Source: Betaproteobacteria bacterium (GTDB lineage Bacteria > Pseudomonadota > Gammaproteobacteria > Burkholderiales > Burkholderiaceae_E). From it: a DNA stretch of 64,000 nucleotides. A program made the translations under genes and the position numbers. Below the pieces are notes generated by a model. It searched no databases, had not been told where the DNA came from, and was given only the letters and a program-made list of their open reading frames with translations. Shown piece after piece: positions 43,170-45,308 of the stretch. Where the stretch lies: the NCBI GenBank assembly GCA_031361565.1, contig JANLRI010000058.1:6800-70799 (forward strand). The letters are read 5' to 3'. Numbering within the stretch: position 1 is the stretch's first letter; every line of letters starts with the position of its first letter.

Positions 43170-43448
43170 TCAATCGCTCGTTGGCTTGGTGAGGCTAATT
43201 TGGCGATTCCAGAACTTGAGGGTTCCGTCGTCATCAATTTTCTGTTCAGCGTAAAGACCTCGAATCACTGACCTCAGATGCCTCGAGCGTGCCTTTCCCA
43301 GCATTTCCCCGTAAACATCCGTGATCCTATCGATCGGTCGAAACGGACCGGCGATAAGAAGATCGAGCAGGTGCTGGCGAAGGTAGGTCTCAGAAAGCCG
43401 CCGTGAGGGCCGCCGCCGTGTCTTTTCGGTCCGGCTCTGCTTCTTCAA
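43170..43448 (-). CDS. Hypothetical 92-aa ORF overlapping the TcmP 3' end by 59 nt; possibly a frame-shifted C-terminal winged-helix-like extension of TcmP
   Basis: The ORF is in another frame from TcmP. The segment ETYLRQHLLDLLIAGPFRPIDRITDVYGEMLGKARSRHLRSVIRGLYAEQKI looks wHTH-like, which is weak evidence. No convincing independent RBS was seen. Confidence 0.3.
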   Translation of the reverse strand: MKKQSRTEKTRRRPSRRLSETYLRQHLLDLLIAGPFRPIDRITDVYGEMLGKARSRHLRSVIRGLYAEQKIDDDGTLKFWNRQISLTKPTSD

Positions 43449-44343
43449 ACAGCGCCAGCACGCCGGTGCGTTCTTGCCTCAGCAAGTTGGCCTCGTAGTC
43501 TTCGTTGCTGCAATGGTGAAGCCAATCCTCGTAAGCGTTTGAAGCCTGATCAACAAACTCCCAATGAGCTTCGGCGTTTGAACTGAACAGCATCAAAAGG
43601 TATTTGGGCGCATGATTAGGTTGCTGGCGAACCTGTATCGAGGTGTAGCGCTTGCTTGTGGCCGCATGTAAGGCCTCTCCGAATCGAATGGCCAATTCTA
43701 TTGCTGCGCCAGTGGATTCCCCTCGCCCCTTCTCCCCTTCGAAGAGATCTCGCCATGGCACCGGCCCAAGCGCTCGATCAACCAGTTCGGCGTTCTTAGC
43801 CGAGGTGGCACCATCAGTAACGGCGGCACGCGCCATCCGGGCAACCGTCAACAGGCTGAAGTGGTATAGAACATCGATCGGCTGTGATGGCGACGATGAC
43901 CTCAATACCTTCAGGAGCGATTCGTAACTGATTCCTAGTCCGAAAGGGTCCACAAAGAGAAACACCGCGTGACGTTGGTACCGCTCCAACAGTGCACCGA
44001 CGAGATCCTCAAATTTGCCCTGCAAAACCTGATCCGCTTCGACCTGAAGCTCTGCGAGAGCGGCCCTCAACTGAGCCACCCTGTTCGCATCGAACTCCAC
44101 GAAGGCAAGTTTGACGTTCCGCTTAAACATCGCAGCTCGCTGAGCTTGCGATGCAAGCAGCAAAGGCGAGCCAGGGCTTTCATCTTCGTATCGCCCTTGA
44201 CCCGCGTAACCATCGATGAAGGCCACGTTCCCGGTGACCTTGCCGGCCCTCCCGGCGAAGTACTTAGCGTAGCGGGTGAGAATGCCGTGCTTGAGGACCG
44301 CCTGAGAATTTCGCCGTTCAAAAAAATCTTCGTTCGCCGCCAC
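43390..44343 (-). CDS. tcmP: Three-Cys-motif partner protein TcmP family (TIGR04474-like)
   Basis: AVLKHGILTRYAKYFAGRAGK...VAFIDGYAGQGRYEDESPGSPLLLA...VKLAFVEFD...VFLFVDPFGLGISYESL follows the pattern I recall for TcmP (K..iL..Y, iD.fAG.G, GSPl.A, f.DPFG). It starts 8 nt after the DUF5131 stop. Confidence 0.65.
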   Translation of the reverse strand: MAANEDFFERRNSQAVLKHGILTRYAKYFAGRAGKVTGNVAFIDGYAGQGRYEDESPGSPLLLASQAQRAAMFKRNVKLAFVEFDANRVAQLRAALAELQVEADQVLQGKFEDLVGALLERYQRHAVFLFVDPFGLGISYESLLKVLRSSSPSQPIDVLYHFSLLTVARMARAAVTDGATSAKNAELVDRALGPVPWRDLFEGEKGRGESTGAAIELAIRFGEALHAATSKRYTSIQVRQQPNHAPKYLLMLFSSNAEAHWEFVDQASNAYEDWLHHCSNEDYEANLLRQERTGVLALFEEAEPDRKDTAAALTAAF

Positions 44344-44351
44344 GGAATCCT

Positions 44352-45125
44352 CTACCCGACTGCACGCATTGGATAGTCATCCCACGTGCGGCCATCGAGT
44401 TCGCGGCCGCCTGCCTTTGGCGTGCGGCCGCCCCATTGCTTGAAAAAGAACTTCACGCCTCCGTCTGCACAGTGGTCGCGGAGTTCTCGTCCCCAGTTGA
44501 TGTCCATCGGGCGAGCCTTTGGACCAGACTCTCCTCCCGCGATCACCCAATCGACGCCATCCAGATTGACTTGACCAAGAGGTCCAAGCAGTGGTTCGGC
44601 TGATACGAACCGGACCGCTGCTGGGACGTCGCGGAGATGGTTAATTCGGAAGTTGTACTTCGCACTCTCGACACTCACGCCCATCCAAACATTTGATGGC
44701 CACTCAAGCTTCGACGCAACAGACTTGAGTCGCCGTGAGCGCTTGGTCAAAACTTGATAAGTATGCCTAGGAGTGTCTTTCATGACTGTGAAAACGTCTT
44801 GAATAAACGAGAGAGGCACATCATCGTGAAAGAGATCGCTCATCGAGTTCACGAAGACTGTTCGAGGTTGCCTCCAGCCATAGGGAACCGACAACGCATC
44901 TTCGTGGGTGGTTAACGCAAAACCCGGTCCGCTCGTTCGTTCATCACCGTCATTTTGGTATTTTTCCGCTCCCATCGCCTTCAATCGCTTGGCGAGGGTG
45001 AGTGCATAACAGTGGTCGCATCCCGGGGAGGTACGGTCACATCCCGTCGTGGGGTTCCAGGTGGCCTCGGTCCATTCAATCGCCGACTTGTCGCTCATAG
45101 ACTCTTCCTCCGTTGTGTCGAACAT
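44352..45125 (-). CDS. DUF5131 / phage Gp37-Gp68 family protein (three-Cys, radical-SAM-like motif)
   Basis: [28 protein letters not shown] (Cx6CxxC), ...[11 protein letters not shown]..., [20 protein letters not shown] and FFFKQWGG are hallmark blocks of PF07505. The true start may be the internal ATG 45098 ([10 protein letters not shown]). Confidence 0.8.
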   Translation of the reverse strand: [257 protein letters not shown]

Positions 45126-45286
45126 ACGTACGACGACACTGTACTTTACGTTGACATTCGTGACAATTATTCAGTATCCACAAACGGCTGCCTGGGCATG
45201 CGCGCGGCTAGTTGCACGGCTGCGTGTGACGCACGAAGTTCTTCAGGCCGCTCTCGGAGGCCCATCGGGTGAACTACACGGTCCTC

Positions 45287-45308
45287 AAAAAGCTACGCAG
45301 CGCGTAGC
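45287..45308 (-). terminator. Intrinsic terminator 15 nt downstream of the hsdM pseudogene stop (gcuacgc-gcu-gcguagc + uuuuu)
   Basis: The plus strand reads aaaaagctacgcagcgcgtagc: a perfect 7-bp palindrome with a 3-nt loop, followed on the minus strand by 5 U. Confidence 0.65.

Follow-up and report, generated by a model that had tools for sequence, protein, structure and literature searches.

The DNA that we analysed (the window, by which we mean the whole stretch of 64,000 nucleotides) holds on its minus strand what remains of a type I restriction-modification (R-M) island with two embedded accessory cassettes, DUF5131–TcmP and DUF1016, and all of the island's genes except DUF5131 are now broken. 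The hsdM remnant (45323–46577) lies in pieces in three frames and has lost about 95 residues, corresponding to approximately 177–270 of a 513-residue homologue; DUF1016 (YhcG, PADLOC PDC-S02; 42528–43034) is an N-terminal fragment without its C-terminal nuclease domain; hsdR (40809–42521) retains only residues 482–1047, the N-terminal nuclease and motor domains having been deleted; and hsdS has been deleted from the locus entirely. The window thus contains no intact hsdM/hsdS/hsdR set, and by gene content type I R-M is not functional here. Profile matches and fragment mapping therefore agree with an earlier, sequence-only reading of this DNA that hsdM, DUF1016 and hsdR are all wrecked, while its placing of the pair 'in the hsdS position' was inexact: in an intact relative (L001) the gene order is hsdM, DUF5131, TcmP, DUF1016, hsdS, hsdR, and the pair sits between hsdM and DUF1016-hsdS-hsdR. 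The DUF1016 gene of the window is a different allele from that of this relative. A search for the island's boundaries found no tRNA genes within the window and no convincing flanking repeats.

The intact DUF5131 gene (PF07505, 'phage Gp37/Gp68'; 44352–45098, minus strand) encodes 248 residues with the motif C20-x6-C27-x2-C30. The mechanically called open reading frame spans 44352–45125, and homologues begin at the ATG at 45098; this is probably the true start, given the length of 248 residues shared with homologues and a candidate ribosome-binding site, GGAGGA, upstream. The family assignment is secure (338.5 bits against a Pfam cutoff of 28.9, over profile positions 2–243 of 243), the PADLOC profiles PDC-M41B and PDC-M30B score 364 and 349 bits, respectively, and the protein also matches PHROG 2045. 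More than 100 invariant alignment columns are all kept in the window copy, and the three-cysteine motif Cx6CxxC is invariant over 25 homologues, so that the family call, the motif and the peptides quoted in the earlier reading stand.

Downstream on the same strand, the first 317 codons of TcmP (TIGR04474; 43390–44343) start with GTG, cover the predicted class I methyltransferase-fold core and end at a premature TGA; the family call is again confirmed, with an NCBIfam HMM score of 119.8 bits (cutoff 53) over residues 15–263. The two co-directional minus-strand frames (44352–45125 and 43390–44343) are indeed 8 nt apart, as had been noted, and the spacer between the DUF5131 stop and the TcmP GTG (AGGATTCC; 44344–44351, minus strand) is Shine-Dalgarno-like, which suggests translational coupling.

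On the hsdM side, a hairpin followed by a U-tract (45287–45308, minus strand) lies just past the hsdM stop and is a plausible intrinsic terminator that would isolate the cassette from hsdM. The hairpin proper occupies 45292–45308, with T5 after it on the minus strand, 15 nt past the stop; it folds with a free energy of −16.2 kcal/mol (z = −2.3) and has been kept in L001 and in a second relative, L009, despite divergence of the remaining spacer. The hairpin pointed out earlier is thus real, and since terminator-like sites in the region are no more numerous than in shuffled sequence, it is position and conservation that speak for it. A promoter-like site, TTGTCA-17-TACAGT (45138–45166, minus strand), lies upstream of DUF5131; it is a consensus match only, and L001 and L009 share its conserved ttgtcacgaatgt stretch.

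The TcmP frameshift and the fate of the window copy

Both genes of the pair had been described as full-length and uninterrupted, which is true of DUF5131 and not of TcmP: a +1 frameshift cuts the latter to 317 residues, whereas its homologues (120 matches listed) are mostly 385–391 residues long. The shift lies at 43393–43397 (minus strand), where the window has, at about 43394–43396, one extra base compared with L001 ('gctttctgag' as against 'gac-ttcggag'). When the 391-residue homologue P0002, which is 83% identical, is compared by tblastn, residues 1–307 match in one frame and residues 317–391 in another, at 75% identity, and the deletion of one T at the shift site restores ...A-S-E-T-Y-L-R-Q.... 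The roughly 75 displaced codons (43170–43394, minus strand) would encode a winged-helix-like C-terminus, which is the extension beyond the TIGR04474 model, and what had been taken for an overlapping 92-residue open reading frame (43170–43448) is this same domain out of frame. Sequencing error can be ruled out as the cause, because contigs from four other metagenome samples (L005–L008) are 100% identical across the lesion. Among the matches listed, the protein database holds no intact TcmP allele nearer than 83% identity. Programmed +1 frameshifting at UUC-UGA was also considered, since the shift site abuts the stop codon, and was judged unlikely: re-pairing would be poor, no Shine-Dalgarno-like stimulator is seen at the site, and TcmP homologues are all single open reading frames.

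We think that the DUF5131–TcmP of the window is most likely a young pseudogene pair, at best crippled, and not a surviving functional unit, because the frameshift is fixed in the population and detaches a conserved C-terminal domain; the cassette copy as such is probably a recent pseudogene. With this lesion goes the argument for independent action of the pair, which was that it had outlasted the decay of the R-M system undamaged. One might still suppose that the 317-residue TcmP core and DUF5131 work on their own, with the C-terminus either dispensable or supplied by rare frameshifting. TcmP keeps all 55 of the 55 invariant residues that precede the lesion, beside a fully intact DUF5131, the pair has its own promoter-like site and terminator hairpin, and naturally short forms of TcmP exist: a 305-residue cyanophage homologue lacks the C-terminal domain, and the PADLOC PDC-M41A profiles are only 275–298 positions long. 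However, practically every full-length homologue in the window's own TcmP subfamily carries the domain, the absence of further decay shows merely that the lesion is recent, the considerations that weigh against programmed frameshifting apply here too, and loss of TcmP is common, several other genomes having the gene in split or truncated form. The low dN/dS values in comparison with L009 (0.061 for DUF5131 and 0.119 for TcmP) might be thought to favour continued function, but they are uninformative, because the certainly dead C-terminal fragment of hsdM gives an equally low value (0.055). We therefore regard an independently working window pair as distinctly unlikely. The dS of the island is 4–10 times that of the flanking genes, and recombination has probably brought in the differences between the window and L009. 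What the window itself contributes is mainly corrective: a whole island is decaying, and it gives no evidence for autonomous function of the pair.

Folds, motifs and carriers of the intact family

If the window copy is a casualty, the family to which it belongs is widespread, and the predicted folds of its two proteins are informative. The AlphaFold model of TcmP (pLDDT 87) retrieves 52 PDB matches at E <= 1e-3, and the best 50 of the 52 are all SAM-dependent methyltransferases. Among viral-library structures, too, the best-scoring matches are mostly methyltransferases. In the model, motif I (D44-G-Y-A-G-x-G, with D44, A47, G48 and G50 invariant) follows strand 1, the motif II residue E83 ends strand 2 and motif IV (D132-P-F-G-L) follows strand 4, and all three motifs recur in the distant 305-residue cyanophage homologue. 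TcmP is thus, by its model, a predicted class I SAM-dependent methyltransferase-fold protein with the full set of motifs I, II and D-P-[F/Y]-G motif IV, which supports the earlier suggestion of a methyltransferase-fold partner. At the level of sequence, none of the Pfam methyltransferase families matched TcmP at E <= 10, and comparison with solved structures gave nothing meaningful. A proposed kinship with the Che9c gp65 DNA methyltransferase, as a divergent TcmP, was ruled out (hhalign probability 0.3%). Residues 306–391 are modelled as helix-helix-helix-strand with pLDDT above 90, and Pfam winged helix-turn-helix families match residues ~308–372, all below threshold; together, topology and matches suggest that the C-terminus of most members is winged-helix-like.

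The PDB matches are led by Trm1 and include RlmJ, a putative rRNA methylase and TFB1M, and it is this list that raises the idea of an RNA substrate (tRNA or rRNA), on which the pair would install or remove a modification that alters translation during conflict with phages or mobile elements, following a logic like that of the tRNA-directed, PrrC-type systems found inside type I R-M loci. We give this idea very little credence. The E-values from Foldseek reach only about 1e-4, and a class I fold does not tell one substrate from another; moreover, a phage DNA methylase heads the viral matches, and the genomic contexts of the pair are centred on DNA (R-M loci, DNA methyltransferases and recombination genes).

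For DUF5131, the model is a beta/alpha barrel of lower confidence (pLDDT 74, falling below 50 around the cysteine loop). Its nearest structure is spore photoproduct lyase (PDB 4fhf), a weak match at E = 4.5e-3 with none at or below 1e-3, and further weak matches to SuiB, NifB, LIAS and EpeE occur amid unrelated TIM barrels; no solved structure matched DUF5131 at the sequence level. The cysteine spacing Cx6Cx2C is not the canonical radical SAM Cx3Cx2C, and non-canonical spacings occur elsewhere in the superfamily. RadicalSAM.org places DUF5131 in its Megacluster 5, as a radical SAM subgroup that adjoins spore photoproduct lyase (PMC9477430), and this listing and the weak structure matches together support the earlier view of DUF5131 as an Fe-S, radical-SAM-like protein.

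The family comprises ~3,300 TcmP clusters at 50% identity, and DUF5131 occurs in 175 phage records. In 27 of 31 reference-genome loci the two genes are adjacent, and they are tightly linked in Actinomycetota, Chloroflexota, Desulfovibrio, a cyanophage, Gordonia phages and plasmids. A general association of the cassette with type I R-M was considered and rejected: embedding is confined to the lineage of the window (L001 and L009), two further loci (L017 and L019) just have hsd genes nearby, and most copies lie outside R-M loci altogether. At the level of the family the cassette is independent of R-M systems, a conclusion that comes from other genomes and not from the window locus. Its commonest neighbours are integrases, relaxases and excisionase-type genes. 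Mobile contexts include a TrwC relaxase, HTH_17 and an integrase, and elsewhere a MobF relaxase; contexts of toxin-antitoxin type include MazE/PIN as well as SocA-Panacea and PemK; DISARM, Druantia and AbiEi are found among nearby defence genes; one copy accompanies an EcoRI-type methyltransferase and DUF262; and another is a bare insertion of the cassette among fab and trp genes. In the Gordonia phage Jablanski, genes 42–43 are an intact pair within an integrase/RelBE/repressor (prophage immunity) region, and the DUF5131 of mycobacteriophages belongs to the DNA replication/recombination module, with a DNA methyltransferase nearby. DUF5131–TcmP is, in short, an autonomous two-gene cassette that moves horizontally, on integrative mobilisable elements and plasmids, in the immunity regions of prophages and in islets of defence or toxin-antitoxin genes. 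The relaxase adjacency prompted us to consider an anti-restriction role in the leading region of plasmids; this may be one role of the cassette, but the position gives it no support, because genes downstream of a relaxase would enter late in transfer.

Spore photoproduct lyase, as the best structural neighbour and an adjacent radical SAM subgroup, and the finding of phage DUF5131 among RecT, RusA and replication genes might together be taken to mean that mobile elements carry the cassette for DNA repair, with DUF5131 acting on a DNA lesion as the lyase does and TcmP serving as a non-catalytic SAM- or DNA-binding partner. Such a role seems highly improbable to us. The structural match is weak, the full complement of catalytic-type methyltransferase motifs suggests that TcmP is an enzyme and not a scaffold, and repair would leave the patchy, islet-like distribution of the cassette and its frequent loss unexplained.

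Candidate function and relation to known systems

Our main reading has two halves, namely that the window holds a decaying island with a TcmP pseudogene and that the intact family is a SAM-dependent nucleic-acid modifier, and we would put the odds that both hold at about even (roughly 0.5). In its intact form, the cassette most likely encodes two enzymes that make up a SAM-dependent module for nucleic-acid modification, with folds, motifs and contexts suggesting the substrate. On this proposal, the intact pair would modify a base on nucleic acid, most likely DNA. TcmP would bind SAM, and select and present the target base, with its winged helix recognising the nucleic acid, and the three cysteines of DUF5131 would hold a [4Fe-4S] cluster, with which DUF5131 would act by radical or redox chemistry upon the substrate that TcmP presents. 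The product would serve the carrier in genetic conflict, either by marking and protecting its own DNA or by contributing to phage defence. Against such a mechanism it counts that the best structural neighbours of TcmP are RNA and not DNA methyltransferases, that the structure matches of DUF5131 are weak and that the winged-helix call is made from model topology and sub-threshold matches. The cassette contains no nuclease or other obvious effector, and a defence role would therefore be without an evident killing step.

A bolder version of this proposal, which we hold tentatively and which may well fail, is that the intact pair represents a new radical-SAM-dependent class that installs an undescribed DNA or RNA base modification, used by mobile elements, prophages and defence islands for protection or immunity, with the recurrent loss of TcmP while DUF5131 is kept then explained by a cost of that modification or a switch in it. 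If true, this would add radical-SAM-based chemistry to the repertoire of restriction, anti-restriction and defence. At the family level, the gain is a sharper and testable hypothesis on a widespread cassette, built on a methyltransferase signature, a C-terminus that resembles nucleic-acid-binding domains and a life as mobile cargo, and intact, clonable pairs are at hand in cultured systems, for example Jablanski genes 42–43 and those on Streptomyces, Nocardia and Rhodococcus plasmids.

The cassette is of an already known kind, listed as a candidate phage-defence system, to which the window adds one decaying copy. The adjacent window genes match both components of PADLOC PDC-M30/PDC-M41 at the profile level, strongly for B (349–364 bits) and weakly for A (TcmP; 32–35 bits, E = 2e-9 to 2e-8). 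Payne et al. 2024 (bioRxiv 10.1101/2024.01.29.577857) derived these candidates by 'guilt-by-embedding', from loci of BREX, DISARM and type I R-M systems, and left the 145 PDC systems as predictions; the notion that embedding in a type I R-M locus marks a gene as a defence candidate, raised again by the sequence-only reading, is supported and already in print. We found no later anti-phage test of PDC-M30/M41 in the searchable literature, within which the statement that PF07505 and TIGR04474 have no experimentally assigned function also holds.

The intact cassette might be a stand-alone anti-phage system that puts out something other than a DNA mark: DUF5131 could, for instance, produce a modified nucleotide with antiviral effect or damage the nucleic acid of phages, in the manner of viperin-like radical SAM enzymes, with TcmP in a tailoring or targeting role. 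Besides the PADLOC match and the R-M embedding in the window lineage, the defence and toxin-antitoxin genes among its neighbours and the Jablanski copy in a prophage immunity region fit this idea, as does the reported enrichment of COG4422 alongside R-M genes in the symbionts of sponges (PMC5649159). Yet the PDC systems are predictions, DUF5131 is common at lytic-module positions in phages (the 175 records), which would be odd for a host effector, and, with integrases, relaxases and excisionase-type genes as the commonest neighbours, the link to defence may just be one to mobile elements. We consider a purely stand-alone defence system rather unlikely.

Set beside systems that are already known, the window pair shares with PDC-M30/PDC-M41 the same two genes and the same embedding in type I R-M, and differs in being frameshifted and in belonging to an actinobacterial TcmP subfamily that is divergent from the A profiles. 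It agrees with the definition of the TIGR04474/PF07505 pair, in that the genes score above both cutoffs, adjoin and carry the three-cysteine motif; there is no difference at the family level, and the C-terminal extension of the window TcmP is simply displaced by the frameshift. TcmP has the class I fold of Trm1 and RlmJ and their motif order I, II, IV: motif I is rich in glycine, the motif II residue is acidic, and strand 4 is followed by a motif IV of the type D-P-aromatic. What sets it apart is an additional helical region, a winged-helix-like C-terminus and the lack of HMM-level similarity to any Pfam methyltransferase family. Exocyclic-amine (gamma-class-like) methyltransferases carry (D/N/S)-P-P-(Y/F), whereas TcmP has D-P-F/Y-G instead. 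The motif IV of Trm1 may itself be D-P-F-G, for which a literature search gave no confirmation. Like spore photoproduct lyase, DUF5131 has a three-cysteine motif near its N-terminus, on what would by its model be a beta/alpha barrel, but it has Cx6CxxC and not Cx3Cx2C, is much smaller at 248 residues and, unlike the lyase, has an obligatory methyltransferase-fold partner. Finally, PrrC and DUF1016/PDC-S02 resemble the cassette in being embedded between hsdM and hsdS/hsdR, where the cassette has what look like a promoter and a terminator of its own; unlike PrrC, the cassette lies mostly outside R-M loci, and its function therefore does not depend on Hsd proteins.

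The gene pair and its interrupted TcmP

Two minus-strand ORFs, 8 nt apart, are read in the window just as the sequence-only reading described them, and its family assignments hold up when checked by HMM: the upstream ORF (44352-45125, minus strand, 257 codons) carries a C-x6-C-x2-C motif and matches the Pfam DUF5131 profile PF07505 end to end at 338.5 bits, and the downstream ORF (43390-44343, minus strand, 317 codons) scores 119.8 bits against the NCBIfam TcmP model TIGR04474, for which the cutoff is 53. Since DUF5131 homologues are 248 aa long and begin at the second methionine of the window ORF, we think that the ATG at 45098, which is preceded by a GGAGGA site, is probably the true start of this gene.

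The claim that both genes are intact fails for TcmP, whose homologues (at least 120, mostly 385-391 aa among the matches listed) include residues that lie out of frame here. In tblastn with the closest homologue, P0002 (391 aa, 83% identical), residues 1-307 align within the 317-aa ORF and residues 317-391 align at 75% identity in another frame, which is the one previously noticed as an overlapping 92-aa ORF (43170-43448). Alignment with an intact relative locates a single extra base in gctttctga, at about 43394-43396, that creates a TGA stop. Because the frameshift region is 100% identical in contigs of four other metagenome samples, and the protein database holds no intact TcmP allele above 83% identity, we consider the frameshift real and apparently fixed in the window's population. 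We also judge it to be recent, since all of the invariant TcmP residues upstream of the lesion are retained (55/55) and the displaced C-terminal segment is still well conserved.

A side observation of note is that TcmP disruption with DUF5131 preserved recurs in other genomes. Among 23 close reference-genome loci, 5-8 have a frameshifted or truncated TcmP (split over two frames in L021, L025, L026, L029 and L030, truncated in L028, L031 and L032), and DUF5131, where present, is always matched once and at full length. Assembly error may account for part of this, as several of the genomes were assembled from long reads. TcmP may carry a cost or be dispensable, or DUF5131 may be able to act alone.

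A decaying type I R-M locus

That the neighbouring genes are wrecked is borne out by comparison with full-length homologues: hsdM survives as pieces in three frames with ~95 residues missing, hsdR as residues 482-1047 only, its N-terminal 481 residues being lost, and DUF1016, a second accessory gene embedded in the locus, as an N-terminal domain without its C-terminus, while no hsdS is left in the window locus. The undamaged order can be read on JGI contig L001, from an intact relative, as hsdM, a 41-aa ORF, DUF5131 (248 aa), TcmP (391 aa), DUF1016 (422 aa), hsdS (422 aa) and hsdR (1047 aa). Since L001 carries both the pair and an hsdS, which follows DUF1016 and is separate from the pair, the proposed hsdS position for the pair must be given up; from this gene order, we place the pair after hsdM and ahead of the remaining R-M genes, without replacement of hsdS.

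By tblastn, the DUF1016 fragment of the window (42528-43034) does not resemble the DUF1016 of L001, although the two loci are otherwise syntenic, and so the two lineages carry different alleles or cassettes as their second embedded gene. At the junction of the DUF1016/hsdR deletion (window 42511-42553), a 44-nt stretch corresponds to L001 6907-6950 in inverted orientation, which hints at a complex rearrangement over a simple deletion.

The pair had also been credited with its own transcription unit. On the minus (coding) strand, a terminator-like hairpin at 45292-45308, lying 15 nt past the hsdM stop and followed by T5, has a folding energy of -16.2 kcal/mol (z = -2.3) and is kept in two relatives despite the diverged remainder of the spacer; a promoter-like site (45166-45138, minus strand) lies upstream of DUF5131. 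The conserved hairpin and this site together make a separate unit plausible, although a simple scan finds no excess of terminator-like sites in the region over shuffled sequence.

It was further argued that the pair survived the decay of the R-M system and is hence independent of it, an argument that is lost both to the TcmP frameshift and to the behaviour of dN/dS, which is not usable as evidence here. Against L009, a relative's contig with 98.2% identity to the window and the same hsdM lesion, DUF5131 shows 14 changes that are synonymous and 3 that are not (dN/dS 0.061) and TcmP has 18 and 7 (0.119), but the dead hsdM C-fragment is equally low (27 and 6; 0.055), which rules out low dN/dS as a sign of function in the window lineage. 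Because this dead fragment combines a low dN/dS with a dS ~10x that of the flanking ABC-transporter genes, the differences in the island look to have entered by recombination with lineages whose alleles work. Gene by gene, dS against L009 is 0.09-0.22 in the island (43553-45931) and 0.016-0.027 in the flanking ABC-transporter genes (46974-48832), a 4-10x difference.

Elsewhere in the window, a perfect (TTG)24 trinucleotide repeat (47776-47847) lies inside an ABC-2 permease ORF (46974-47900), where its minus-strand reading gives 24 consecutive Asn close to the N-terminus, an unusual feature for a genome of ~57% GC; L009 differs by a 3-nt gap somewhere within this ORF. The strong GC and AT skew over the first 23 kb is due to a giant plus-strand ORF (28-23349) of 7,773 aa, with ~58 DUF11 repeats and CARDB, DUF7507 and DUF7927 signatures, the product of which is presumably a huge repeat surface protein.

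The cassette in other genomes, plasmids and phages

Both window genes are matched by the PADLOC candidate phage-defence systems PDC-M30 and PDC-M41. Such candidates were defined via "guilt-by-embedding" in BREX, DISARM and type I R-M loci and are untested predictions (bioRxiv 10.1101/2024.01.29.577857). Our literature searches yielded no experimental study of either protein under any identifier, in agreement with the view that their function is experimentally unassigned.

In nearly all of 31 reference-genome loci the two genes lie side by side, and embedding in an R-M system is confined to the window lineage. Pfam-annotated contexts include a recurrent ~10 kb chromosomal element consisting of a TrwC relaxase, HTH_17, DUF5131, TcmP and then an integrase. 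Further chromosomal contexts are MazE/PIN, SocA-Panacea with PemK, RHS and AAA_16 genes, and an insertion of the two genes alone between fab and trp genes, and on plasmids the pair adjoins a MobF relaxase, sits between IS elements with a zeta toxin nearby, or adjoins an EcoRI-type methyltransferase and DUF262. The commonest families among 89 immediate neighbours (17 loci) are phage integrase (5), HTH_17 (4) and TrwC (3), and DISARM, Druantia, AbiEi, type I REase and IS66 are also found there. The ~10 kb element is integrative and mobilisable with the pair as its main cargo (L040/L041 2814-10073; L050 3503-11553), and one or two small ORFs lie between TcmP and the tyrosine integrase; TrwC occurs three more times as a neighbour in the reference-genome loci.

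In Gordonia phage Jablanski the pair has the integrases and RelBE to one side and the immunity repressor to the other. DUF5131 alone appears in 175 phage records, and it seems to act alone in most phages. In Che9c and prophiGD53-3 it belongs to a replication/recombination module, where two small genes separate it from a DNA methyltransferase upstream; in these mycobacteriophage loci (L054 1399-4568; L053 1940-4502) DUF5131 is longer, at 333-386 aa, and the upstream methyltransferase, of ~500 aa and unrelated to TcmP, may be a different partner for it. In a cyanophage, DUF5131 and a 305-aa TcmP homologue (hhalign probability 97.6%) without the C-terminal domain are convergent. The TcmP family comprises ~3,336 clusters at 50% identity, most of 370-415 aa, and none of them holds an informative fusion.

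The earlier observation is confirmed in part, and its interpretation finds partial support at the level of the family but loses its key locus-specific argument, the intact surviving pair. What the window carries is one decaying representative of a candidate family that is already known and catalogued but uncharacterised, and this copy adds little besides one example of cassette decay. The family itself is a worthwhile experimental target, for which intact clonable representatives exist, among them the pair at L001 846-2779, Jablanski genes 42-43 and a pair on a Streptomyces plasmid.

Predicted structures and possible function

The TcmP model is a confident one (pLDDT 87, pTM 0.88), with 52 PDB matches at E <= 1e-3; among the matches listed, 50 of 50 are class I SAM-dependent methyltransferases, with Trm1 at the top and RlmJ included, and matches in a viral structure library are again mostly methyltransferases. 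Motif I, D44-G-Y-A-G-x-G, comes after strand 1, E83 lies at the end of strand 2, and D132-P-F-G follows strand 4 (D-P-Y-G in the cyanophage homologue). The invariant residues fall on canonical methyltransferase motifs, in a layout that points to a SAM enzyme able to catalyse, or to a base-flipping protein, more than to a degenerate scaffold. The C-terminal part of the model (residues 306-391) is a helix-helix-helix-strand domain (pLDDT > 90) with winged-helix Pfam matches, all sub-threshold, and this domain is the part removed by the frameshift. The DUF5131 model (pLDDT 74, below 50 around the Cys motif) is a beta/alpha barrel.

The reading that we favour is that the two proteins would constitute a two-enzyme SAM-dependent nucleic-acid modification module for use in genetic conflicts, the substrate of which would probably be DNA. 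Defence, protective self-modification, repair and RNA modification are roles that cannot be separated from one another on these data.

Among known systems, exocyclic-amine methyltransferases, the established motif IV of which is (D/N/S)-P-P-(Y/F), share the motif layout of TcmP and differ from it in that TcmP has D-P-F-G. RadicalSAM.org lists DUF5131 as a radical SAM subgroup next to spore photoproduct lyase (PMC9477430), and this lyase (E = 4.5e-3), together with other radical SAM enzymes, is among the best, if weak, PDB neighbours of the model.
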